Positions 4,171 through 27,246 of a stretch of 32,000 nucleotides of DNA are shown here, one piece after another (the first letter of the stretch is position 1; every line of letters begins with the position of its first letter). The DNA comes from Horticoccus luteus (GTDB lineage: Bacteria; Verrucomicrobiota; Verrucomicrobiia; Opitutales; Opitutaceae). A program made the translations under genes and the position numbers. The notes beneath the pieces are model-generated. The model was not told the origin of the DNA, did no database searches, and saw only the letters and a program-made list of their open reading frames with translations. The stretch is taken from contig NZ_CP080507.1 of the NCBI RefSeq assembly GCF_019464535.1, positions 3,840,001-3,872,000 on the forward strand, read 5' to 3'.

Positions 4171-4992
4171 TCACTTCTTCGCGCCGGTCGCCGCAGGCAA
4201 CGCAGTCGACGGGGGAGCTTTTTCCGGCACCTCGATTACCTCGCCAAATTCCACGCGGCCCTCGCGCACCGGCGCCTCCGCCCAGACCGGGCGCTTCGTT
4301 TCCCGCCCGAAATACGGCGCCCCGCTGTCCACCAACGCCTGCACCACATCGGTCATCACCACGCCTCGTGACGGCGTGCTGATCCGCGCCCGCCAAAGCA
4401 GCGTCTTTTTCTTCTTCACCGCGTCCGCATAGTCGAAGGCCGACACCAGCACAAAATAGCGGTCCTCCTCCGCCGCCTGCATCACCGCATCGCGTTCGAA
4501 GTTGAGATCCAGTGCGCCAAACGTATTTCCGCCCACCAGCGCCAGCATCTGCGCCTGGTTGCGTACCTGCTTCTGCGGTTCTCCGTCTTCATCCTCCGTC
4601 TCGTCCTCGTCCACGTTCAGCGCTCCCCAATGGAAAACCAGCAGCAACGTGGGCGCGGGCGTTCCCGGTCCCATGACAAGATAACCTTGCCGGGCGAGCG
4701 CGCGTGCGAGCGGCTTGACCAGCGCCTCGCGTCGCGGTGCTTTCTCTCCCGCCTCCACCGGGCCTTCCTCCCGCCAGCCCGCCAGCAACGGAACGTAAAA
4801 CACCGGCTTCGCCTTCGTCGGCGGCGTGACCTTCCTCCCCGCTTCGGTGACGGAGACGTTGACGTTCACCTCGCAGGTTTTCGGTGCGGCCACCACGCCG
4901 GCGGCGAGCATCGACGCGAAACACGACGCAATGAAAGAGCGCACCGCGCGATGACGCACCAAGCCGCCGCTCGTTTCAAGCTCACGCCGCAC
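4171..4992 (-). CDS. secreted hypothetical protein, tandem paralog 2
   Basis: Paralog of 3173-4018. The start is probably GTG at 4992 or a nearby in-frame GTG. Hydrophobic segment SFIASCFASMLAAGVVAAP, then CEVNVNVSVTEAGR. Confidence 0.65.
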   Translation of the reverse strand: MRRELETSGGLVRHRAVRSFIASCFASMLAAGVVAAPKTCEVNVNVSVTEAGRKVTPPTKAKPVFYVPLLAGWREEGPVEAGEKAPRREALVKPLARALARQGYLVMGPGTPAPTLLLVFHWGALNVDEDETEDEDGEPQKQVRNQAQMLALVGGNTFGALDLNFERDAVMQAAEEDRYFVLVSAFDYADAVKKKKTLLWRARISTPSRGVVMTDVVQALVDSGAPYFGRETKRPVWAEAPVREGRVEFGEVIEVPEKAPPSTALPAATGAKK

Positions 4993-15396: not shown

Positions 15397-15479
15397 CGCG
15401 CACACGATTCACCGTGACCGCGAGTGAGTCGACGCTCGATTGCACCGGTGTCGACTGTTTGCGGGGCGTGCCGCGTGAA

Positions 15480-15731
15480 CCGCCGCGCGGCGGTTCGCGC
15501 CCATCCGCGGCGAACGCCCCCTCTCGACGGGCGAAAGCGAACGCCGCCGGCACGCGCGCCCGCGACCGGCGCAAGCGGTCGCCGTCCGGCGCTGCGTCCG
15601 CCCATCGGCGGTCGGAGGCCACTACAAAACGCATAAGTGGCGGTCGTAACCGCGGACGCCTCCGAAACGGGCTTGTTCAACCCGCGTCCCGCTGCGCGCT
15701 ACGGCGCAACAGAACGCTCAGAGTTCGGCTC
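15480..15731. repeat. Repeat A copy 1 (long form; conserved ~62-bp core at about 15670-15731, attC-like core 15675-15729)
   Basis: Starts with the 14-bp palindrome CCGCCGCGCGGCGG. Aligns with 19636-19861 along its length (with indels) and with 17700-17862 (more divergent). Core: GTTCAAC cc GCGT ccc GCTGCGC gctacg GCGCAAC aga ACGC tcaga GTTCGGC. The stop codon of ORF 15718-16275 lies inside it. Confidence 0.85.
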
Positions 15732-16275
15732 TGGTTTTCTTTTCTGTTTTTTGGGTGTTCGCATTTACAGATGGCGAAAAAATAAAAAATAATAAAAACA
15801 GCCAGCCGACCCAAGGTATGACGTAGAAAAAAATCATGTAAGGCGAATTACCTAAGTCTCTAGCTCTTTTGATGTGCGCACAAATAAAAGTCCATCCGCT
15901 GAGAATGAAAAACGGCAGACATAAAATTATGGCTAAATCGCCACCGCTGCTGTAATAGCCTTGACCTTGGGACTTGATAATTACTCCGCCGAGGATAAAA
16001 ATAAATGCGCAGCAAAATAGTAAGATCGTGAATATGGATCTTGGGATTTTTCCGTAGGGTGAAAAGAGAATCGATGCGATTCCGACTCCAATAGTCGCTG
16101 TTGCATATCCTCGTTCGGCTTTTAGTAACTGTTCGGCGCGAAATCTTAAGTAATTTGCCTTGGCTTTCTTTTCATCACCTTCGGAAAAGGCCATGGCCTT
16201 AACCCAAATGCCTTGAGATACTTGCTGGGTCTGAAGCTCTTGGAGAGCGGCATTATATGCGTTTTCTTCGGTCAT
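15718..16275 (-). CDS. DUF805-like inner-membrane protein with a soluble N-terminal segment (island cargo 1)
   Basis: AT-rich ORF. Start at ATG 16275 (MTEENAY...) or the in-frame ATG 16293 (MPGQNTM...) inside repeat B. The C-terminal half has about 4 TM segments and the RARDLGNSPYMIFFYVIPWVGWLFLLF motif typical of DUF805/YhaH-type proteins (from memory). Confidence 0.7.
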   Translation of the reverse strand: MTEENAYNAALQELQTQQVSQGIWVKAMAFSEGDEKKAKANYLRFRAEQLLKAERGYATATIGVGIASILFSPYGKIPRSIFTILLFCCAFIFILGGVIIKSQGQGYYSSGGDLAIILCLPFFILSGWTFICAHIKRARDLGNSPYMIFFYVIPWVGWLFLLFFIFSPSVNANTQKTEKKTRAEL

Positions 16276-16291
16276 GGTATTTTGCCCAGGC

Positions 16292-16297
16292 ATTATA
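16292..16297 (-). promoter_or_regulatory. perfect -10 hexamer TATAAT facing out of repeat B1 into cargo ORF 1
   Basis: The minus strand reads gcagcTATAATGcctgggcaaaataccATG. No convincing -35 at 16-18 bp. The same arrangement occurs at 18524-18529. Confidence 0.3.
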
Positions 16298-16422
16298 GCT
16301 GCGATGAAGGAGCGGAAAGCGAAGAGGGTGCTTGTCCCCGGTGAACGCGGGTTACCCTCGAATAGCGCCGATCCGCAGGGGTGTGGCGTGTAACCGAAAC
16401 AACCAAAACCAGAGGCAAGCAC

Positions 16423-16696
16423 ATGAAGCTCAAGCAAAGATACGTGGGCCTGGATGTCCACAAAGATACTATCACGATAGCGACGGCGGAAGGCAGCCGC
16501 GAAGGCGAGTTGCGCGTGTATGGACGGGTGAGTTCAGACCTGCGGATGTTGGAGAAGACGTTGCGCAAGATTCGGATATCGAGATCAATGCGAACGTCTT
16601 TCGTCGAGCTTGGAAACGTGGCGTGCGCAACGTGCTCGGGCGGGGGTGCCCGCAATTCGCTTCGTTTGTCAAGAGTCAAGGCGTGCGGTTTTATGG
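16423..16696 (+). pseudogene. IS110-family transposase, N-terminal fragment
   Basis: The YVGLDVHKDTI signature contains the first catalytic Asp of DEDD transposases. The reading frame degenerates after about 60 codons, and homology to copy 2 ends at 16696. There is a 2-nt indel relative to copy 2. Confidence 0.75.
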
Positions 16697-17592
16697 GGTT
16701 TTCGTCGATGTGTTTGTCAGCGGCCCCACCCATGAGCTGCTGCCCACGCCGACGATCGTGCCCGGGACCGGAGCCCGTATCGTGCAGGCGGGTTACTATG
16801 CCCGGTGGGTCGGGCGGCTGGAACTCACGGTGGACCTGGAAACCAGGAAGGTGATCGAGGCCGCGGGCGAGGCGATCCCCATGAGACATGACCGGACGCC
16901 GGTCGACGCCGCGATGCTGGCCTGGGTGCGGCAGCGGGAGAGTGAATTGTGCCCGGAGGCGAGCGACGTGCTGGTGAAGGACTCCGGGATGTTGACCATG
17001 AATGAGGTGGCCTGGCTGGGAGCGGCGGCGCTGCGGCGCCAGGCAAAAACCGATGTGGGCTTCTGCCATGCCGGGCAGGGTCATCCGCAGTCCGATCTTC
17101 CCGGGACCGCTCGACGTCAACGCCCTGTTCCTCGCCGGCGGGGATCGCGGCAACGCCACGGTGCGCACGGAACTGACCGGCGCGGAGATCGAGGCCTATT
17201 TGCGGGCGTTGGGTGAGCGACAGGATCAGACGAGCTGGTCCGGGTTCAAGGTCGTGTCGGGGGCGGCGAATCCCGGGCGATTGGCCACGGACCTGGAGCC
17301 GGCGCGGAGTTACACGGTGATCATGCCGGCTAAGGAATGGGACACCCGGTTTCTGCGGATGGTCGAAAACGCCAGGAAGTCCAGCCGCGGCAACCCACTC
17401 ACGGCGCGCCCGTTTGCCGCGACTCCCGCCCCGACGGTGTCGTTCACCGTGGCCATGCGAAACTACGTGGAGCAGCTGACGGCGGCGAAACAATCGCTCA
17501 AGGCGGAGGCGGACCGCTTGTCCACCGCGACCGGCGCACGGCCGACCGCCCCGGCCGATTGGGCGGCCACCGCGGGTCAGGCCGGTCGCTGA
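16697..17592 (+). pseudogene. 5'-nucleotidase / metallophosphatase family protein, C-terminal portion, frameshifted
   Basis: VDVFVSGPTHELL ... IVQAGYYARWVGRLELTVDLETRKV ... then, after a frameshift near 17070, VIRSPIFPGPLDVNALF ... VRTELTGAEIEAYLE-like. This resembles the end of the phosphoesterase domain plus the 5'-nucleotidase C-terminal domain. Host-like high GC, native stop at 17592, N-terminus replaced by repeat B1. Confidence 0.6.
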
Positions 17593-17699
17593 AGGCTCCG
17601 GGCGGAGTGCCCGTGCGAGTGGGTGACGCGGCGCGGAGCTCTCTCGTGAACGACGTCCAGGTTTGAGCCGGCAATCCTGCGTGTTGCAGTGTATAAAGG

Positions 17700-17862
17700 G
17701 CGCTCCGCATTTCTCCCCCGCCCGTAGGACCGCCGCGGGTCGGCGCGCCCACAACAAAGCGACTAAGCGCGCTCGTCGCGACGGCCTGCACCCGCAACCG
17801 GGCTTGTTCAACCCGCGTCCCGCTGCGCGCTACGGCGCAGCAGAACGCTCAGAGTTGGGCTC
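17700..17862. repeat. Repeat A copy 2 (divergent extension 17700-17799; conserved core 17800-17862; attC-like core 17806-17860)
   Basis: The core GTTCAAC...GCTGCGCgctacgGCGCAGC...GTTGGGC is near-identical to copies 1 and 3. ORF 17830-18507 reads into the core and stops at the TAG inside the palindrome loop. Confidence 0.85.
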
Positions 17863-18507
17863 CTTCTTCTTCAACATCTCGTCATAGTTCGGTGGAGGTT
17901 CGTGCCGAATCTCAATCCTGGCATTCTCAATCTCGCTGATCTTCTGCACAATGGCCGGCTCGTCAGGATGGAGTTTCGCATACTCTCTCAGGTGCGACAA
18001 GGCCTTCGCCTTGTCTCCTTGGCTGAGGTAGACAAACGCCAGCGTGTAGTGGGCGTCGGTGACGCCAAGTGCCAAAGCCTTCTCCAGATAGGCAATGCTA
18101 TCTTTCTGCCGGGCGGCCGTGGCGGACAGAAAGGCGCCGTAATAGAAATTCGCTCGGCTGTCGTTGGGCTTCAACTCCAGCAGCCGATCGAAAGCCTTGA
18201 AATACTTCTGCGCACAACCCTCGAAATCGAGATTGTGCCCCATCGCATTCGCAAAACCGTCACGAAACAATAGCTCTGGATTGTCGGGATACTGAGCGAC
18301 TGCGGCGTCCAGCATCACAAGCAATTCCCTAAGCTGAGCCTCGATCTGCCTCCGTTCCGCCACCGAAGAAAAACTCGGCGGGAAGTCTTGGGCGTGGGGA
18401 GCGATCACCGACAATGTCGAGTCAATCGACTTCAGGCTCAGCGACACTTCCTTTGCCGACAAACCTGTAACTGCAATCAAGACGACGGTCAAAAAGATGG
18501 AACGCAT
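17830..18507 (-). CDS. secreted TPR-repeat protein (island cargo 2)
   Basis: ATG at 18507 gives the signal peptide MRSIFLTVVLIAVTGLSA. TPR-like helices follow (AQKYFKAFDRLLELKPNDSRANFYYGAFL, YLEKALALG, AHYTLAFVYLSQGDKAKALSHLREYAKLHPDEP). The longer ORF-track form (to 18693) runs antisense through repeat B2. Confidence 0.75.
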   Translation of the reverse strand: MRSIFLTVVLIAVTGLSAKEVSLSLKSIDSTLSVIAPHAQDFPPSFSSVAERRQIEAQLRELLVMLDAAVAQYPDNPELLFRDGFANAMGHNLDFEGCAQKYFKAFDRLLELKPNDSRANFYYGAFLSATAARQKDSIAYLEKALALGVTDAHYTLAFVYLSQGDKAKALSHLREYAKLHPDEPAIVQKISEIENARIEIRHEPPPNYDEMLKKKEPNSERSAAP

Positions 18508-18523
18508 TTGGTTTAGCCCAGGC

Positions 18524-18529
18524 ATTATA
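18524..18529 (-). promoter_or_regulatory. perfect -10 hexamer TATAAT facing out of repeat B2 into cargo ORF 2
   Basis: The minus strand reads gcagcTATAATGcctgggctaaaccaaATG. This is the same geometry as at B1. Confidence 0.3.
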
Positions 18530-18654
18530 GCTGCGATGACGGAGCGGAAAGCGAAGAGGGTGCTTGTCCTTGGTGAACGCGGGTTACGCTCGAAGAGCGC
18601 CGATCGGCAGGGGTGTGGCGTGTAACCGAGACAACCAAAACCAGAGGCAAGCAC

Positions 18655-18926
18655 ATGAAGCTCAAGCAAAGATACGTGGGCCTGGATGTCCACAAAGATA
18701 CAATCACGATAGCGACGGCGGAAGGCAGCCGCGAAGGCGAGTTGCGCGTGTATGGACAGGTGAGTTCAGACCTGCGGGTGTTGGAGAAGACGTTGCGCAA
18801 GATCCGGATAACGGGAGCAATGCGAAGGTCTTTCGTCGAGCTTGGAAACTTGGCGTGTGCAACGTGCTCGGGCGGGGGCCTGCAATTCGCTTCGCTTGTC
18901 AAGAGTCAAGGCGTGCGGTTTTATGG
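18655..18926 (+). pseudogene. IS110-family transposase, N-terminal fragment
   Basis: MKLKQRYVGLDVHKDTITIATAEGSREGELRVYGQVSSDLRVLEKTLRKIR..., truncated at 18926. Confidence 0.75.
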
Positions 18927-18983
18927 CTTTACTTACGGCGGGAGATTATACACCCGCCTTCTCGTTCCTACTGGTTCGGCTTT

Positions 18984-19376
18984 TCATCTGCTGGAATATT
19001 CTCGATGCACCTTATCGAACGGAGCGTCGGCCAACGCATCGTAGACTCGAGTGGAACAGAGCCCGATGACGATCAAGTGCGTCCGCGTGGTCGAATCCCG
19101 CTGAAGAATCGACTTTGCGTCCATCGGATACTGATAGCTGTGTCTATAAAGTGTGTTGCCGACCTTTACGAACGGAAGCCACCGCCAAAACGGGCGTTCG
19201 ATTTCGACCCTCGCAATCAAATCACCGCTTCGCTCTTTTGCGGCCTCTCGATTGCTCGTGGTAGAAGCGAATTGTGACGAGTAGCAGCTGATTAAGCCGG
19301 TCTGATCGATCGCCGCCAAAATCAGCACGGATGCTCCGAGAATCGCTGCGATTTTCTTTTGAGGGAATATGGCCAT
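18984..19376 (-). CDS. small N-terminally anchored/secreted hypothetical protein (island cargo)
   Basis: ATG at 19376 gives MAIFPQKKIAAILGASVLILAAI. AT-rich with no recognisable domain. The ORF-track start at 19400 is a GTG inside repeat C1. Confidence 0.55.
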   Translation of the reverse strand: MAIFPQKKIAAILGASVLILAAIDQTGLISCYSSQFASTTSNREAAKERSGDLIARVEIERPFWRWLPFVKVGNTLYRHSYQYPMDAKSILQRDSTTRTHLIVIGLCSTRVYDALADAPFDKVHREYSSR

Positions 19377-19393
19377 TTTTTGCCGTTCACTTT

Positions 19394-19457
19394 TATTCAC
19401 CCTTACCCGATTGCCTTACCCGAAAGGGATTCATGGGAATAAACATGCACACAACGC
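19394..19457. repeat. Repeat C copy 1 (upstream module with tandem CCTTACCCGA x2)
   Basis: tattcaCCCTTACCCGAttgCCTTACCCGAaaggg..tcatgggaata.acatgcacacaacgc is shared with 21655-21718. It lies immediately 5' (minus-strand sense) of ORF 18984-19376. Confidence 0.8.
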
Positions 19458-19471
19458 GCGACGGCTAAGAT

Positions 19472-19591
19472 GGGGTCAAGACGCTAGTTGGTAATCCCAG
19501 CTTTGAGACGTGCTTATTAATGTTCCATTGCACTACAAGTAGGCAAGGCAGGGCTGTACGATGCAAAATTAACAACTAGTGCCTTGACCCC
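19472..19591. repeat. 120-bp AT-rich element bounded by 19-bp imperfect terminal inverted repeats (MITE-like or long hairpin)
   Basis: GGGGTCAAGACGCTAGTTG at 19472-19490 versus CAACTAGTGCCTTGACCCC at 19573-19591. 16 of 19 positions are complementary, with a central 3-nt mismatch. Confidence 0.6.
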
Positions 19592-19635
19592 GCTCCACGG
19601 CTACAACAACCGGCTGAGCGGGTGGGCCATGCGCT

Positions 19636-19861
19636 CCGCCGCGCGGCGGTTCGTGCCCTTCCGCGGCGGACGCCCTCTCGGCGGACGAAAACCGACCCCG
19701 CCGGCACGCGTGCCTGCGACCGGCGCTGTGTCCGCCACCGGTGGGCGGCCACTACAAAACGCATAAGCGGCGGTCGGAGCCGCGGCCGCCTTCGTCCCAA
19801 GCTTGTTCAACCCGCGTCCCGCTGCGCGCTACGGCGCAGCAGAACGCTCAGAGTTAGGCTC
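19636..19861. repeat. Repeat A copy 3 (long form; attC-like core 19805-19859)
   Basis: Starts with the same CCGCCGCGCGGCGG palindrome as copy 1. The core is GTTCAAC...GCTGCGCgctacgGCGCAGC...GTTAGGC. The core begins 2-3 nt after the TAA stop of ORF 19863-20408. Confidence 0.85.
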
Positions 19862-19862
19862 T

Positions 19863-20408
19863 TTATACATAGCGCTCGATGTGCTTCTTATCAGATAGAA
19901 AAAACGACGCTACGAATCTCGCATTATCGGAGTAGGCAAGCTTCCCAACAGCCGATGTAAAGTGCAGCTCGTGGTCGTGACTGGGCTTCCTTCCAATTAC
20001 GCTCCATGCAATCCAAAGACCGATCAACGCTTCCAACTCTTCTTCTTTCTTCTCGTGGAGCGCGTCGAAACACGGGATAACGTCGGATTCTATCGCTCCG
20101 TGCGGAAGCTGCAAAAGAAAGCTACACAAACCCTGTATAGCTGCGACGAATCGCGAACGAACAGAAAGGTCGATGCCCTGCACGATACCAGCGTGAAGTC
20201 GCGAATAGTCGTGCTTTCCGAGAAAGCGCTCTATGCGCGCAAGAGTGCCGACAATCACTGCACTCTGGTAAATATCGCCGAACAGCGCCTCTTTCTTCTC
20301 AATGCCAAGCTGCGGGAATCGGGCTTCGAGTGGCCCAATCGTGTCCGACGTAAAATTGAAGGCCCACATCAGCACTTGCCCGTGTGGTGTGCGAAGATCA
20401 GCGGGCAT
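19863..20408 (-). CDS. hypothetical protein (about 181 aa, island cargo; last gene of a 3-gene operon)
   Basis: ATG at 20408 (MPADLRTPHGQVLMW...). The ORF-track start at 20420 is TTG. Lower GC than core genes, no recognisable domain, no signal peptide. Confidence 0.6.
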   Translation of the reverse strand: MPADLRTPHGQVLMWAFNFTSDTIGPLEARFPQLGIEKKEALFGDIYQSAVIVGTLARIERFLGKHDYSRLHAGIVQGIDLSVRSRFVAAIQGLCSFLLQLPHGAIESDVIPCFDALHEKKEEELEALIGLWIAWSVIGRKPSHDHELHFTSAVGKLAYSDNARFVASFFLSDKKHIERYV

Positions 20409-20491
20409 ATTTTTTGCCAACGTCAGCAGTCAGCCACGGAGGGGAGCGTCAGTTCCCCGGAGTTGGCTGTGATGCTCTGGATCGGCCTGCT

Positions 20492-20986
20492 TCATTTCTC
20501 GAGGAGTTTCTTCTTCGCAGCCTCAAACTCCGCATCAGTGATGATGCCCTTCTTTCGCAGATCATCGAGCTTGGTAAGCTCGGTGTAGAGATCCGGAGCT
20601 TTCTCTTCTTTTGTCTTAACGTCCGCGGCGATCTTCTCGGTCTTCTCGACCACGATGTCCGCTCGGGGCACTAGAGCTGTGCGCTTCGCTTCGGGATCAT
20701 CTTTGTCAACGACGCGAAACTGGTAATCGAACGACGCGAACTGACCGATCGCCATCGGCGTCTCTTGAGTCGAAAGTGGGATTGCCACTTTCCCTTGCTT
20801 GGCGGCGAACTCATTCGCTTCATGTATAACCTCCGCCTTCATCTTGCTGGCGTTCCCGAATATGCCGCCCTTGTCCGTGCGCGAGATAAAGTATGTGTCT
20901 GGCGAAATCTGCACGACGCCGGGATTGGCGCAACCGGCTAAAATCAGGGAACAGCATGCTAGAAACGTGAGGACTAAGGGTTTCAT
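20492..20986 (-). CDS. lipoprotein with C-terminal SHOCT domain
   Basis: Lipobox MKPLVLTFLACCSLILAGC. The C-terminus LTKLDDLRKKGIITDAEFEAAKKKLL is the SHOCT (short C-terminal oligomerisation) motif. Confidence 0.8.
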   Translation of the reverse strand: MKPLVLTFLACCSLILAGCANPGVVQISPDTYFISRTDKGGIFGNASKMKAEVIHEANEFAAKQGKVAIPLSTQETPMAIGQFASFDYQFRVVDKDDPEAKRTALVPRADIVVEKTEKIAADVKTKEEKAPDLYTELTKLDDLRKKGIITDAEFEAAKKKLLEK

Positions 20987-21633
20987 AATTCTTCTGCCGA
21001 TGTTATAGGTGAGACGCGAGGGGGCGCAGCCACCTCGTTGTCTGTGCCGTCTTGTTCGCCCTCTGCCGGTTTTCGCAAAGATGTCAGCCGATCAAACTGA
21101 TCAGGCGACATGTGAGAAATAACATGAATAGCCGACTTTCCCTCTATCAACCCCCTAATCTTCTTTCTGATCTGGTGCTGATCCTCCTCAATCTCTCCAT
21201 AACCCTTTGGATAATAAGATGAACTCTTTATATGGCCCTTATCAAATTCGTAACCTAAGCATTCCGCCATGTCGTGAAGAAGATCTACGAGCAATTCTGC
21301 TCGCCGATGATTCCATGACTCAGGTGGGTAGCTGTGGTCGCCGAGATGCGCGTGATACAGCTTCCATGCCGACACCACTCGCTTTTCTTCCGCGCCTCGA
21401 TGATCGAACTCGATGTCTATCAGATTCAATGCCTCAACGTGCGTCGGAGACAGTGATGAAGCGCGAGTCGCCATCAGCGTGCGGAACACATGAATCTGCC
21501 GATCACGCTTTTCTTTCTTCAGGCGTAGACCTTCCGTCACGCGAACTGCGAGGTAAGGCCCTGCAAACACCGCGAGAATCATCACGAGGTCGGTCGCTCT
21601 GGCGGTCCAATCTATGGCCAATGCTGCGATCAT
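20983..21633 (-). CDS. N-terminally membrane-anchored hypothetical protein (216 aa; possibly DUF6680-like)
   Basis: ATG at 21633. One N-terminal TM segment (LVMILAVFAGPYLAV), then a helical soluble domain (IHVFRTLMATRASSLSPTHVEALNLIDIEF). The stop overlaps the start of the SHOCT gene (ATGA). The family assignment is from memory and tentative. Confidence 0.65.
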   Translation of the reverse strand: MIAALAIDWTARATDLVMILAVFAGPYLAVRVTEGLRLKKEKRDRQIHVFRTLMATRASSLSPTHVEALNLIDIEFDHRGAEEKRVVSAWKLYHAHLGDHSYPPESWNHRRAELLVDLLHDMAECLGYEFDKGHIKSSSYYPKGYGEIEEDQHQIRKKIRGLIEGKSAIHVISHMSPDQFDRLTSLRKPAEGEQDGTDNEVAAPPRVSPITSAEEL

Positions 21634-21654
21634 GGTTTTCTTCGGCGAACAATG

Positions 21655-21718
21655 TATTCACCCTTACCCGATTGCCTTACCCGAAAGGGGCTCATGGGAA
21701 TAGACATGCACACAACGC
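21655..21718. repeat. Repeat C copy 2 (upstream module with tandem CCTTACCCGA x2)
   Basis: Near-identical to 19394-19457. It lies 22-85 bp 5' (minus-strand sense) of ORF 20983-21633. Confidence 0.8.
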
Positions 21719-21790
21719 TCGGAGTATCAATACTTGCGCAGCTTGGGTAAGTTTTTTCGTCCTAGGCGGGGCACGTTCGTGCGGAATCGA

Positions 21791-21940
21791 CGAAATGCTG
21801 AGGCGTTCCGCCACACGAGCCGCGCGGACGGCAGGGATCAAACGAAACGCTGACGCGTTCCGGCACTCGACTGACGCGGACTGAGACCGATAGCGCGAAA
21901 TGCTCACGCGTTCCGATACAGGACCGGGCGGACCAGCGCC
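21791..21940. repeat. tandem repeat, 52-53-bp unit, about 3 copies, each starting with the imperfect palindrome CGAAAYGCTSASGCGTTCCG
   Basis: 20-mers at 21791-21810, 21843-21862 and 21896-21915. The intervening 32-33 bp also align with each other (..CAC.CGA....CGCGGAC.G..). Located between the island and the stop of the nucleoside hydrolase gene. Confidence 0.7.
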
Positions 21941-21953
21941 AAAAAGGCGTCCC

Positions 21954-23206: not shown

Positions 23207-25237
23207 ATGTTGAAATTCCTCACCCCATCCGGCCGCGCCGCCGCCGTCTTATTCGTCGCCCTTGTCTCGCTCTGCCCGGCGCGGCTCCCTGCCGCCCACC
23301 AATGGCAGCCACCCGATCCGGCCGAACTCGCCGCCTCGGTCCCCCGGGTCGATCCCGACGCCGGCGCGGAGATTCTCCTCCGCGAAGTCACGGAAACCGA
23401 CGAGGACAACACGATCCCGCAACGCACCGTTTACGTGCGCGCCAAAGTCTATTCCGAACGCGGCCTCGCCCAACTCGCCAAGGTCGAAATCCAATATGAT
23501 AAGTCGAGTTCCATCCGGGAGATTGCCGCCCGCACCATTCTTCCGGATGGCACGATCATACCGCTGCGGCCGGATGAAATTTTCGATCGCGAGGTTCTAA
23601 AAACCGGCAGCGAGCGCGTGAAGGTGAAATCATTTGCGCCTCCCGGCCTGGTGCCCGGCAGCATGGTCGAATATTTCTATCGTGAGCAAATGGACTATTT
23701 GCCCCGCACTCGCGTGTTTTCCCTCCAAGCCGACCTGCCGACGCAGTGCGTTCGCTTCCATATCCGGCCGAACAACTATCACGACCTCCAAGCCCTGTTC
23801 TTCAATTGCGCCCAGCAAAATTTCGCGGCCGACAAAAACGATTTCCGCCACCTCGAGCTGACCAATGTGCCCGCGCGTTTGAACGAGCCCTTCGCTCCGC
23901 CCGCGCTCGAAATTGAACCCACCGTACTCATTTACGATAACGTCATGTTCTTCGGCGCCACTTCCTTGCCGTGGACCGAACGCGGCAAGCTTCTCCAATA
24001 CTGGGTCGATAAGTTGCTCAAACCCACCAAACGGCTCAAGGCCGTCGCGGAGAAACTTACGACCCCGCAGGATTCCGCCCAGGACCGGATCACGAAGTTT
24101 TACAACTATTGCCGCACTCAGATTGTAAATCGCGACGACGACACCGCCGGATTTACCGACAAGCAGCGCGACAAGTTGCCGCCCAATATCGACCCCGATA
24201 AGACGCTGAAACTCGGCCACGGCGTCACGCAGGATATTAACCTGCTCTTCGCCGCCCTCGCTCGCACCACCGGACTCGACGTGCGGCTGGCGCTGACGGG
24301 GGACCGCAGTTTTATCTTTCCCACCCCTGCACTCACCGAAGCGTTTGCACTGCCGAAGCTGATTGTGGCCATCCATGTCGGAGCGGATTGGACCTACTTC
24401 GATCCCGGCAATCGCTACCTCGCTCCGGGGCAACTCGATTGGAATAATTCCGACATCCAGGCCGTCATCGCCGACGCGGACAACGGCCAGATTGAGCGCG
24501 TGCCGGGCGTGCCTGCGGAGGACTCTATCCGTCATCGCACGGGCACCTTCAACCTCGATCCCGAGGGCAATCTCGACGGTGATGTGCACGTTGACTACTC
24601 CGGCCTTTGGGAGGTCGAGATGAAGAACACGCTGGACGCTCAGACCCCCGACGAACGCGCCACGACGATCAAAAACGAAATCGTGGACGTGTTACCGCTC
24701 GCGGAAGTCACGAGCATCGCAGTCGAGGGCGCCGCCGATCCCTTGGGTCGGCTCACCGTCCGCTATCACCTGCGGGTGCCCCACTACGCCGAGCGCACCG
24801 GCTCGCGCCTGTTCGTCCAACCCGCCGTGTTCCAAAAGGGAGCTGCGGCGGTCTTCGTCAAACCCGACCGCAAAACCAATCTTATCTACAAATATCGTTT
24901 CACTGAGTCGGATAAGATGAGCATCAAGCCGCCGGAAGGCTACACGCTCGAAGCGGGGAACGCTCCCGCCAACCTCGATCTCGGCGAGGCCGCCAGCTAT
25001 CGCGTCTCGCTCGGCGTCACGAAGAAGACCCACACGATCATCTACCAGCGCGAGTTCGCTCAGCACATCATGTATCTGCCACGCGAGAATTACGCCGCGT
25101 GGAAACAGGCGCTCGACGAGATTCGCACTCGCGACGGTCACACCCTCTCCCTCCGCCGCCCCGCCCCCGCGGCTGCGGAAACGCCCCCGGCCGACGCCGC
25201 CACCCAACCCGCGTCCGCCGCGCCCACGGGCCTCTGA
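23207..25237 (+). CDS. DUF3857 / transglutaminase-like / DUF3858-type protein (catalytic Cys apparently replaced)
   Basis: Signal peptide, and an N-terminal DUF3857-like region with the architecture typical of this family. The core aligns to the downstream paralog, but GHGVTQDINLLFAALARTTGLDV has Thr where the paralog has Cys (GDCKDKSTLLRALLAAHGVES). Confidence 0.75.
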   Translation: MLKFLTPSGRAAAVLFVALVSLCPARLPAAHQWQPPDPAELAASVPRVDPDAGAEILLREVTETDEDNTIPQRTVYVRAKVYSERGLAQLAKVEIQYDKSSSIREIAARTILPDGTIIPLRPDEIFDREVLKTGSERVKVKSFAPPGLVPGSMVEYFYREQMDYLPRTRVFSLQADLPTQCVRFHIRPNNYHDLQALFFNCAQQNFAADKNDFRHLELTNVPARLNEPFAPPALEIEPTVLIYDNVMFFGATSLPWTERGKLLQYWVDKLLKPTKRLKAVAEKLTTPQDSAQDRITKFYNYCRTQIVNRDDDTAGFTDKQRDKLPPNIDPDKTLKLGHGVTQDINLLFAALARTTGLDVRLALTGDRSFIFPTPALTEAFALPKLIVAIHVGADWTYFDPGNRYLAPGQLDWNNSDIQAVIADADNGQIERVPGVPAEDSIRHRTGTFNLDPEGNLDGDVHVDYSGLWEVEMKNTLDAQTPDERATTIKNEIVDVLPLAEVTSIAVEGAADPLGRLTVRYHLRVPHYAERTGSRLFVQPAVFQKGAAAVFVKPDRKTNLIYKYRFTESDKMSIKPPEGYTLEAGNAPANLDLGEAASYRVSLGVTKKTHTIIYQREFAQHIMYLPRENYAAWKQALDEIRTRDGHTLSLRRPAPAAAETPPADAATQPASAAPTGL

Positions 25238-25239
25238 GC

Positions 25240-27246
25240 GTGCGGCTGCTCCTCACCTTTTTCGCGGTCGTTCTCGCGCTGGCGGCCCACGCTCGCACCA
25301 CCGCTCCCGATTGGATGCGCGAAGCCGCGCGCCTCGCCCCGGCCGCCGCTGCCGCGGAGGTGGACGCCACGATTCTCCTCGACGAGCAACGCCTCACCGT
25401 GGAGGCGAACGGCACGTATCGAATTCGCGTGCGCAAGGTCACGAAAATCCTGACCGACAACGGTCGCACCCAAGCCCGCGCCTTGTTCGCTTACGAGCAA
25501 GGCGCGGAAAAAATCCGCTCCCTCGATGCGTGGCTCATCCGCCCCGATGGCGCCACGACGAAGCTGGATAAATCCTGTTTCGCCGATGTCGCCGTTTACG
25601 CCAGCGCCTTGGAATTGTATAGTGAGCGGCGCGCCCGGCTGGGATTGCCCGCCGAAAACGCCGACCCCGGCTCCATCTTCGGCTACGAAGCCGATGTCGA
25701 GCAGACCGCGGTGCTCGGACAACTCACGTGGAGTTTCCAACGCGCCTTGCCCGTCGAGCGCTCGGTCTTCGCCGTGAGTCTGCCCGACGGCTGGACGCTC
25801 GATGCCCGTGTTTTTAATCATGCTCCCGTCGAACCGCGGAACGCCGGCGGCACCGCCGTGTGGGAATTACGCCACCTGCCCGCCTTCGAAAACGTCCCGT
25901 TCGGAAATTCGTTCGCGGCCGGCGCCGTCCAACTCGCCCTCGACCTCAAACCTCCGCTGCGGCCAGGCCGGCCGGAGGTCCGCGCCACGTTTTCCGACTG
26001 GCGCGCGGTCTCCGCTTATTTCACACCCGCCTTCGATGCCGCCGCCGTCCCGGATCCCGCGATCACGCAACGCGTCGCGCAGGCCGTCGCCGTCGCGCCC
26101 ACGCCGTGGGATCAAGTCACCGCGCTTTGCCGCCTCGCGCAGTCGGCCAACTATATTTCCATCGATCTCGACGCCGCGCACGCCGGCGGTTTTCGGCCCC
26201 GCCCGGCCCCGGCCGTTTTCCGCTGCAATTACGGCGACTGCAAAGACAAGTCCACGCTGCTCCGCGCCCTGCTGGCGGCCCACGGCGTGGAATCCTGGCC
26301 GGTCGCCGTTTTCGCCCTCGACCGCGACCGCGTGAAACCCGACTGGCCCTCGCCGCTCCAGTTCAACCACTGCATTCTCGCCATCCGGATCGGCGACAAC
26401 GCCCAACCGCCCGCCCTGCTCGTCCATCCGACCTTGGGCCGGCTCATGCTCTTCGACCCGACCGATCCCTACACGCCCCCCGGATTGCTGCCCACCGGCG
26501 ACCAAGGCGGCTTCGGTTTGCTGCTCGCCGGAGAGTCAGGCGGTTTGATCACGCTGCCCACGCTCGATGCCGCCCATCATCATCTCGACCGCCAGATCCG
26601 CGCGCGAATCGCCCCCGACGGCTCCATCTCCGGCACGATCGAAGAACATTTCGCGGGCTCCGAATCGTCCGCCGTTCGCGCCGGCTGGCGTGCGCAATCG
26701 GCCACGGATTTCCAGGCCCGCCTCGCCACTTGGCTCGCCACCACGCTCAACGGCCCGCAGATCACGCGCTGCGAGCCCCGGGATGATTTTGTGCAAGGCA
26801 ACTTCGATCTCGGCGTGGATTTCAACGCCACCCGCTTCGCCCGGCGGATGCGCAACACGCTGCTGATCTTCAAACCCGTGGTTGTCGCCCGGCGTTCCGC
26901 GGTAATCCTCAAGCCCGAACCCCGCCTCAGCCCCATCGCGCTCCCTGCCACTCGGTTTACCGAACGCACCGAACTCGCCCTGCCCGCAGGCTACCGCCTC
27001 GACGAAATGCCCCCGCCGCTGGAACTGCGCACCTCGTTCGGCACCTATACCTCCCACGGCGCGATCGCCGACGGTAAGTTCATTTTCTCACGCCGCCTGG
27101 AGTTGCAGGCGACCACGCTCCCCGCCACGGAATACGAGCACGTCCGGCGCTTTTTCGAGCAGGTGGCGGAGACCGAAAACACGCCGGTCGTTCTGGAGAG
27201 AGTCGAACCGACCGAATCGCCCGCCGTCGATCCTGCCGACTCCTGA
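25240..27246 (+). CDS. DUF3857 / transglutaminase-like protein (Cys-His-Asp core present)
   Basis: GTG at 25240, 2 nt after the upstream stop, followed by VRLLLTFFAVVLALAAHA. Core motifs YGDCKDKSTLLRALL, NHCILAI and FDPTD. The ORF-track start at 25099 overlaps the upstream gene and is unlikely. Confidence 0.8.
   Translation: MRLLLTFFAVVLALAAHARTTAPDWMREAARLAPAAAAAEVDATILLDEQRLTVEANGTYRIRVRKVTKILTDNGRTQARALFAYEQGAEKIRSLDAWLIRPDGATTKLDKSCFADVAVYASALELYSERRARLGLPAENADPGSIFGYEADVEQTAVLGQLTWSFQRALPVERSVFAVSLPDGWTLDARVFNHAPVEPRNAGGTAVWELRHLPAFENVPFGNSFAAGAVQLALDLKPPLRPGRPEVRATFSDWRAVSAYFTPAFDAAAVPDPAITQRVAQAVAVAPTPWDQVTALCRLAQSANYISIDLDAAHAGGFRPRPAPAVFRCNYGDCKDKSTLLRALLAAHGVESWPVAVFALDRDRVKPDWPSPLQFNHCILAIRIGDNAQPPALLVHPTLGRLMLFDPTDPYTPPGLLPTGDQGGFGLLLAGESGGLITLPTLDAAHHHLDRQIRARIAPDGSISGTIEEHFAGSESSAVRAGWRAQSATDFQARLATWLATTLNGPQITRCEPRDDFVQGNFDLGVDFNATRFARRMRNTLLIFKPVVVARRSAVILKPEPRLSPIALPATRFTERTELALPAGYRLDEMPPPLELRTSFGTYTSHGAIADGKFIFSRRLELQATTLPATEYEHVRRFFEQVAETENTPVVLERVEPTESPAVDPADS

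Follow-up and report, generated by a model that had tools for sequence, protein, structure and literature searches.

An AT-rich island lies between an S4-domain gene and a nucleoside hydrolase gene in the window studied here, a 32,000-nt stretch of the genome of Horticoccus luteus (contig NZ_CP080507.1, positions 3,840,001 to 3,872,000), which is an Opitutae-type genome of the Verrucomicrobiota. Our analysis makes it highly probable that this island is what remains of the cassette array of a sedentary chromosomal integron whose integrase has been lost, and that its repeat A (copies A1 to A3) is the right end of an IS91-family element that inserts specifically into attC sites. As an object, the island is of a known kind, a decayed chromosomal integron, and this identity explains its composition, its repeats, and its strain-level variation. 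It contains six cassettes; of the attC sites, two are intact and three are split by transposase-less IS91 derivatives (A1 to A3). Also present are two putative IS110-family mini-elements of 417 bp (repeat B), one miniature inverted-repeat transposable element (MITE), and two sequences that we read as attI-like (repeat C). The reading is carried by the element families, the sequence junctions, the structure and covariation of attC, and a complete integron in a relative.

The window has about 66% GC, with 62% to 71% in the flanks of the island and 49% to 60% at 15.5–16.5 kb and 18.0–21.5 kb; the stretch at 16.5–18.0 kb is an exception within the island, at 63% to 67%. A compositional drop had been described in an earlier reading of the letters alone (the original prediction), and these values bear it out, apart from that stretch. 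The credible open reading frames (ORFs) of the island are small and all on the minus strand, and Pfam scans divide them into DUF805, TPR, SHOCT lipoprotein, DUF6680, and two orphans. No integrase, recombinase, or intact transposase had been seen at first reading, and tblastn with the relatives' proteins likewise detects no integrase or transposase in the window. The integron integrase (IntI) of one relative, locus L018 (related loci carry the prefix L), has no tblastn match in the island or near the 52-bp repeats at its edge, and Pfam scans of the larger window ORFs contain no recombinase.

Cassettes, attC sites, and attI-like sequences

The orientation of the array is given by L018 (GCA_964629125.1), which holds a complete integron. 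There, intI reaches 372.8 bits on TIGR02249, against a cutoff of 265, in a single full-length match and is divergent from the array, attI adjoins intI, and the minus-strand cassettes carry the same attC type as those described here. The L018 array also contains a full IS91/recombinase element, along with a truncated second copy with a solo A core. Given this arrangement, the minus strand of the window is the cassette (top) strand, and the plus strand is the attC bottom strand.

Each cargo ORF is bracketed on the plus strand by G(TT/AT)NGGC on one side and by its exact complement on the other, with the variable position covarying (TTAGGC/GCCTAAC, TTCGGC/GCCGAAC, TTGGGC/GCCCAAC, ATCGGC/GCCGATC, GTTGGCC/GGCCAAC, and GTTCGCC/GGCGAAC). 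Across the window and the related loci, about 10 perfect pairs represent seven box sequences, and in these the R'' box complements the start of its own cassette; two near-miss boxes (GCC-AAC and GCCGATG) also occur in the window. Cassette ORFs start in most cases 5–9 nt after a 7-bp box and end at, or a few nucleotides before, the complementary R'' box of their own attC. Between the ORFs lie imperfect hairpins of 60–115 nt, which, when rebuilt as the circular form of attC, fold into a 7-bp R stem, an unpaired bubble, an L stem with one bulged base, and a variable loop (z = -4.6 to -5.5). In an alignment of 10 attC sequences, the 7-bp L stem is unbroken in all and the one-base bulge is conserved, with compensatory changes in 3 L-stem pairs and in 5 of the 11 predicted pairs overall.

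A covariance model (R1), which we built from ten sites including 20415–20486, finds attC in the 32-kb window only at 20415–20486 and 20996–21060, and finds co-oriented arrays in the relatives. The two intact sites are 510 bp apart, giving the island the at least two attC sites of a cassette array or CALIN, i.e., a cluster of attC sites without an integrase, as reportedly described by Cury and colleagues in 2016. Homologues of the 20415–20486 site, which belongs to the SHOCT cassette, occur in L003 and L013. The R'' box of the second site (GGCGAAC) is the exact complement of the GTTCGCC box beside the second copy of repeat C (C2), and this site divides the supposed DUF6680–SHOCT operon into two cassettes. 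Consequently, the three-gene operon of the original prediction dissolves into three separate cassettes with an intact attC at each of these two positions, while its broader idea of a cassette array was right in kind, given the co-oriented ORFs, the covarying 7-bp boxes, and the structured attC sites between them. As a side observation at 20983–21120, the DUF6680 frame has no stop before its attC and runs on for about 26 codons through it, overlapping the SHOCT start (ATGA); the TPR frame likewise passes its R'' box into A2.

The features of the island are the following, in window coordinates:

15420..15474, minus strand: 3' part of the attC of the DUF805 cassette, read directly from the sequence (palindrome AGTCGAC...GTCGACT); a remnant cut off from its own R'' box by A1, which aligns with the attC 3' arm and left-end junction of L005 and L004
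15475..15722, plus strand: A1, apparent transposase-less mini derivative of an IS91-family/tyrosine-recombinase element, with a degenerate left end (GTGAACCGCCGC..GCGGCGG) and an oriIS-type right end with a 14-bp hairpin
15723..15729, minus strand: R'' box of the DUF805-cassette attC (GCCGAAC), which is also the GTTC target tetranucleotide adjoining oriIS
15718..16275, minus strand: cassette ORF, DUF805 membrane protein (PF05656, E=7e-10)
16280..16696, plus strand: B1, putative IS110-family mini-element of 417 bp, left end 4 nt from the DUF805 ATG
16698..17592, plus strand: GC-rich frameshifted gene fragment between B1 and A2, in two reading frames (GC 63–67%)
17730..17853, plus strand: A2, apparently 5'-truncated right end of an IS91-family/tyrosine-recombinase element, about 124 nt
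17830..18507, minus strand: cassette ORF, TPR protein (PF13428, E=4e-10), with R'' box GCCCAAC at 17854–17860
18512..18926, plus strand: B2, second putative IS110-family mini-element, structured as B1, 4 nt from the TPR ATG and inside the attC of the next cassette
18927..18980, minus strand: attC remainder of the small-ORF cassette (hairpin GGCGGG..CCCGCC; R'' box GCCGAAC at 18974–18980; fold z = -3.1)
18984..19376, minus strand: cassette ORF of 130 aa, no family match
19383..19471, minus strand: C1, second copy read as attI-like, with a 7-bp box, the junction motif ATTCACCC, and two CGGGTAAGG direct repeats; no significant hairpin
19472..19591, strand not assigned: MITE of 120 bp with 24-bp terminal inverted repeats (88% complementary), inserted in an attC
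19592..19616, minus strand: attC 3' arm left over from the 185-aa cassette; its plus-strand sequence ends in ...CCGGCTG
19617..19852, plus strand: A3, apparent transposase-less mini derivative of an IS91-family/tyrosine-recombinase element, 82–89% identical to A1
19863..20420, minus strand: cassette ORF of 185 aa, no family match, with R'' box GCCTAAC at 19853–19859
20415..20486, minus strand: intact attC (repeat D) of the SHOCT cassette (R1: 60.6 bits, E=3e-13; in the training set)
20492..20986, minus strand: cassette ORF, SHOCT-domain lipoprotein (PF09851, E=2e-9)
20996..21060, minus strand: intact attC of the DUF6680 cassette (R1: 38.9 bits, E=1.4e-7; outside the training set)
21061..21633, minus strand: cassette ORF, DUF6680 (PF20385, E=8e-51, residues 13–172); the open frame extends through attC to 20983
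21645..21721, minus strand: C2, read as attI-like, at the array head; kept beside the nucleoside hydrolase gene in the closest relative; no hairpin
21791..21947, strand not assigned: three degenerate tandem units of about 52 bp (about 77% column identity; no call by Tandem Repeats Finder)

Read along the minus strand, starting at the nucleoside hydrolase gene, the array consists of C2 followed by six small, promoterless-looking cassettes: DUF6680, SHOCT lipoprotein, 185-aa ORF, 130-aa ORF, TPR, and DUF805. We infer an order of events in which the integrase gene, now gone, would have stood where the 52-bp tandem units lie, and rearrangements would have added the second attI-like copy (C1) and trapped the GC-rich gene fragment. 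The 52-bp repeat exists in three units as originally described, in the degenerate form listed above.

The closest relative of this site is L014, as judged by its nucleoside hydrolase (88–90% amino-acid identity). In L014, that gene is followed by about one unit of the 52-bp repeat, then by a C element (91%), a 135-aa cassette that differs from the window's, and an A core at the contig end; intI is absent at this site in both the window genome and L014. Since the first cassette of L014 is a different one, modules vary between relatives, which is the module-level difference that the original prediction had proposed to look for by synteny. The same layout recurs in L023–L030, which belong to a more distant recombinase lineage (73% identity), with cassette content that differs between samples.

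The two copies of repeat C (19394–19460 and 21655–21721; 67 bp, 94%) do not fold into a hairpin. The attI of L018 begins with a box followed by AGTGTTATTC, a motif that heads or ends arrays in L024, L008, L004, and L010, is also found in L014, and is present in imperfect form in C2 and C1. Because of this shared motif and the lack of a hairpin, we read C as probably attI-like, with C2 at the head of the array, kept beside the flanking gene in L014, and C1 within it. C2 carries the same pair of CGGGTAAGG direct repeats as C1, and C1 is joined via the MITE to the middle of another attC. Two attI-like copies in one array could reflect either a duplication or a fusion of two platforms.

Repeat A and its parent element

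The three direct copies of repeat A, about 62 bp long in the original prediction, are readily recovered. A 34-nt core recurs unchanged on the plus strand at 15675, 17806, and 19805 (0 matches expected from 100 shuffles), within a common core of about 62 bp at 15669–15732, 17800–17863, and 19800–19862. A1 and A3 share about 200 nt more upstream of it, at 82–89%. The upstream extension of A2 is about 63% like theirs; with the right-end regions of L003, L009, L012, and L013, its identity is about 80%. As it matches such copies rather than A1 and A3, A2 probably comes from a different sub-lineage. The R'' boxes of the split attC sites differ as well (GCCGAAC at A1, GCCCAAC at A2, and GCCTAAC at A3). 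None of the three copies encodes a protein and, since the HUH Y2 transposase gene is absent from the window, A1 to A3 are non-autonomous remnants. A1 and A3 show only a degenerate terIS-like left-end match, beside an attC remnant, and A2 has no left end; A1 and A3 would accordingly be internally deleted mini copies and A2 a 5'-truncated copy.

An exact search with a 26-mer of the A core returned two occurrences in 185,579 representative genomes, both in one Opitutae metagenome-assembled genome, and 11 in metagenome contigs. A genome-wide repetitive extragenic palindromic (REP) element, which the original prediction had named as a finding that would overturn it, is rejected on account of this scarcity.

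The parent element becomes apparent in the related loci. An IS91-family Y2 transposase gene ends 250–300 nt before the A core in L002, L004, L007, L008, and L012, a tyrosine recombinase gene stands in front of the transposase gene in L002, L004, and L005, and the A core again follows an IS91-family transposase gene in L018, L019, and L024, giving at least eight loci in all. The transposase matches NF033538 with 349 bits (E=3e-104), and also PF04986 and PF14319. For the recombinase, the best family is the integron integrase (TIGR02249), with 168 bits in two stretches, below the cutoff of 265. In an alignment to VchIntIA (2A3V), the region between the two aligned stretches measures 45 aa versus 72 aa in IntI4; hence, the IntI-specific segment appears to be largely missing. 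The recombinase is 32% identical to the IntI of L018. Published work places the recombinases borne by IS91 elements nearest to IntI and reports that they lack its extra helices (10.1101/542381).

The ends of the element follow the rules of the IS91 family, namely, terIS on the left and, on the right, an oriIS with palindromes that abuts a GTTC/CTTG-type tetranucleotide (PMC13181058). The left end of full copies, GTTGAACCAAGCCGCTGCGCGG, starts with GTTG followed by a palindrome, and GTTGAACCAAGCCGCTGCGCGGCGG is found there at 8 independent junctions. The right end is the A core with its two palindromes, followed by GTTC, GTTA, GTTG, or GATC; in the window, the right ends abut GTTC, GTTG, or GTTA, as expected of an oriIS. 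Repeat A is therefore the oriIS-type right end of a rolling-circle element of the IS91 family, which in addition carries a gene for a tyrosine recombinase of the integron-like subgroup. All insertions share strand and orientation relative to attC, which suggests that the element transposes as a single strand by rolling circle.

Deletion derivatives are common: in L012, the left end is joined directly to transposase codon 222, and a copy in L018 is truncated at its 5' end. Full IS91/recombinase elements also stand in tandem with a single cassette between them (L019, 2345–5309; L005, 176–2892), and a cassette flanked in this way may be co-mobilized with the element. At several right ends, we observe a tandem duplication of 5–14 nt, e.g., GAACGCTCAGAGTT twice, which includes the GTTGAAC that opens the left end (coordinates oriented by a plus-strand A core: L008, about 641–668; L010, about 505–524; L018, 9479–9506; L019, about 4878–4890). 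These duplications look like scars of tandem insertion beside a resident oriIS followed by deletion.

Insertion within attC and rival explanations

At each of the eight independent left junctions, the sequence in front is a full attC hairpin with ...CTG at its end. At about 20 right junctions from several lineages, the element is followed by the complement of an R'' box and the stop codon of a minus-strand ORF; to the right of the core, the sequences diverge directly after ...GCTCAGAG|TT, and at each locus they enter another small minus-strand ORF from its 3' end. Every junction seen thus lies inside an attC, between the R'' box and the remaining hairpin, in one orientation relative to attC. 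This position and fixed orientation explain why repeat A abuts a cargo stop codon, a pattern that had already been noticed in the original prediction.

The ends of the element, GTTGAAC... and ...GTTCAAC plus hairpin, are complementary across the circle junction (12-bp stem with one bulge, z = -3.2 to -4.1), which is predicted to read ...GCTCAGA|GTTGAACC.... They mimic R boxes, such that both halves of a split attC again look like complete sites; one attC thus becomes two attC-like ones, and the element takes its place in the array as a cassette does. As the inserting enzyme, we favor the HUH transposase because both IS91 end rules hold, the alternative being integration by the IntI-like recombinase.

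We tentatively go one step further, in a proposal that is possible but that we regard as the less probable outcome. IS91 elements that carry the nearest relatives of IntI might be dedicated parasites or passengers of cassette arrays, with one fixed point of entry into the folded bottom strand of attC. Since the R-box-like ends would rebuild two working attC sites, the transposon would become a cassette open to excision and reinsertion by IntI or by its own recombinase. If true, this would constitute a previously unrecognized functional link between rolling-circle IS91 elements and integrons, as well as a concrete scenario for the origin of IntI and attC recombination. In full-text literature searches, we found no report of attC-specific insertion for IS91-type elements, and an attC-specific, cassette-mimicking IS91/recombinase element may be undescribed so far. 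With a recombinase from the group reported to be nearest to IntI, the element provides a way to test how integron recombination is connected with single-strand transposons, and the association bears on the erosion and reshuffling of cassette arrays by such elements.

Several points weigh against reading the island as a decayed array with attC-specific IS91 insertions. Only two attC sites in the window are intact, and the attC calls come from a model built in this analysis rather than from the curated model of IntegronFinder. GATC replaces GTTN at three right junctions. A1 and A3 have degenerate left ends, with alignments that fall in GC-rich sequence, such that a mini-element is not securely preferred over a truncated copy. 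The assignment of C to attI relies on position and on the short, imperfect motif of box plus AGTGTTATTC. Finally, the junctions by themselves do not separate HUH-mediated insertion from recombinase-mediated integration.

An alternative that we consider unlikely takes the minus-strand reading of the A hairpin to be the attC of the upstream cargo and the IS91/recombinase unit to be a true cassette, bounded by TTGAAC... and ...GTTCAAC plus hairpin and moved by IntI or its own IntI-like recombinase rather than by the HUH transposase. The first 6 nt of the element, TTGAAC, do complement the GTTCAAC box, with the stable junction fold given above; the junctions also fit a G|TT crossover, and both the best family match of the recombinase (168 bits) and the published kinship of IS91 recombinases to IntI (10.1101/542381) point the same way. 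However, the A hairpin is near-identical beside more than 20 different cargo genes in several lineages and is always followed by the IS91 3' non-coding region; it therefore travels with the insertion sequence (IS) and not with the cargo, and we rejected it as the cargo's canonical attC. Cargo genes away from the IS have variable D-type attC sites instead, the crossover implied would lie at the R'' side and not at the canonical R' (with the orientation set by intI in L018), and the recombinase has the shortened segment of 45 aa where IntI4 has 72.

The two explanations put forward in the original prediction fare worse. In its main idea, which now seems very improbable, A was a chromosomal att site copied by each serial site-specific insertion, in keeping with three direct copies that each meet a cargo stop codon and with the approximately 250 nt shared by A1 and A3. 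However, A belongs physically to an IS91-family element in at least eight loci, each window copy splits a different attC (R'' boxes GCCGAAC, GCCCAAC, and GCCTAAC), and the upstream extension of A2 is unlike those of A1 and A3 and resembles other copies. Moreover, the S4-domain gene flank is not shared by loci elsewhere, none of the other A copies showing such a conserved flank. Its second idea, which took B for the left end and A for the right end of two gutted IS110-family copies enclosing the cargo, drew on spans of 1.3–1.6 kb (B1 to A2 and B2 to A3) and gains from the IS110-family transposase N-terminus that B contains, yet it has become barely credible. B1 and B2 begin and end at the same discrete points, 417 bp apart; their full-length counterpart in L002 stops well short of any A and adjoins an attC; A lies downstream of genes from a different IS family, and the B1–A2 span holds an unrelated gene fragment. 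Altogether, these comparisons favor a decayed cassette array in which repeat A marks IS91-family right ends in three different attC sites.

Repeat B, other features, and comparison with known systems

The two B copies (16280–16696 and 18512–18926; 417 bp) are 96% identical over the first 300 nt and about 95% over their whole aligned length. Each consists of a left end, the first approximately 50 transposase codons, and a tail of about 115 nt, a layout that we read as an internally deleted IS110-family mini-element. The N-terminus encoded by B is 66% identical to the full-length IS110-family transposase of L002 (PF01548 and PF02371); no Pfam model matched the B fragment alone, which spans only about 50 codons. 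B1, B2, and the L002 element all lie 2–4 nt from a cassette ATG in one orientation, with attC sequence on the far side of B2 and of the L002 element; the two B elements and the MITE sit in or beside other attC sites. On the cassette strand, the IS110 left end reads GCTATAATGCC TGGGC AAAA (window 16276–16300 and 18508–18532; L002 1996–2000, in original coordinates) and contains an outward TATAAT about 20 nt before the cargo ATG, as well as a box-like CTGGGC. IS110-family elements may in this manner replace the R' box and the promoter of the downstream cassette. In L016 (9634–9775), a different MITE of about 140 bp, with the ends GAGATTGTCGGAAAA and TTTTCCGACAGTCTC, lies directly after an attC box with AAC on both sides and is a further case of small elements collecting in these attC sites.

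The fragment at 16698–17592 had been called a 5'-nucleotidase pseudogene. It is indeed frameshifted, and the family match is limited to a weak, sub-threshold hit to PF02872 (E=0.08); it is possibly the C-terminal part of a 5'-nucleotidase. Its composition is host-like, and one-ended IS91 transposition or an IS-mediated rearrangement may have brought it into the array. Just past the nucleoside hydrolase gene, at 23207–27246 on the plus strand, are two adjacent large ORFs with DUF3857, one of them also with a transglutaminase core; the first stretch has 57–62% GC. Rfam (at the gathering cutoff and at E<=1) and ARAGORN returned nothing relevant on the window and no tRNA, and a structured RNA or tRNA/tmRNA was thereby ruled out as the insertion target. 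The island has no plasmid matches, and defence-system models have no matches among the six cargo proteins. Searches for identical proteins were likewise negative for the S4-domain protein (from two start codons), the DUF6680 protein, and two Horticoccus luteus recombinases.

The island resembles chromosomal integrons and CALINs in its co-oriented small ORFs, mostly of unknown function and low in GC, and in the structured attC after each ORF, with an R'' box that complements the start of its own cassette. Further likenesses are attC sites that are homogeneous within a lineage, a first cassette that varies between relatives, and, in L018, an intI divergent from the array. Unlike integrons, the window has no intI, retains two of about six attC sites intact, and holds two attI-like copies; some boxes have ATC/GAT for AAC/GTT, and the host is an Opitutae-type verrucomicrobium.

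The A element shares with the IS91 family (IS91, IS801, IS1294, and ISCR, including a subgroup with an upstream tyrosine recombinase) the HUH Y2 transposase with its zinc-binding domain, a terIS-like GTTG plus palindrome on the left of full copies, an oriIS-like right end with two palindromes next to GTTN, the lack of target duplication, tandem and truncated copies, and the recombinase of the integron-like subgroup. It differs from that family in its target, which is one fixed attC position and strand every time, beyond a tetranucleotide, and in ends that mimic R boxes, such that insertion rebuilds two attC-like sites; in addition, the window copies lack both genes.

Targeting of attC has precedents. 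Published work describes the IS1111-attC group (ISPa21, ISKpn4, and ISPst6; Tetu & Holmes 2008, Post & Hall 2009, both cited in PMC11187229) as ISs that target one attC end in one orientation, and group IIC-attC introns as using a folded attC strand as target, also in one orientation (PMC3001079). Repeat B and the L002 element resemble the former as IS110-family elements at cassette/attC boundaries, a likeness by position; unlike that group, B appears to be a 417-bp non-autonomous derivative, and A belongs to an unrelated transposase family. The introns, unlike A and B, are retroelements with no sequence or mechanistic relation to them. Against this background, in which attC-specific insertion is already known for IS1111-type elements and group IIC introns, it is repeat A that stands out.

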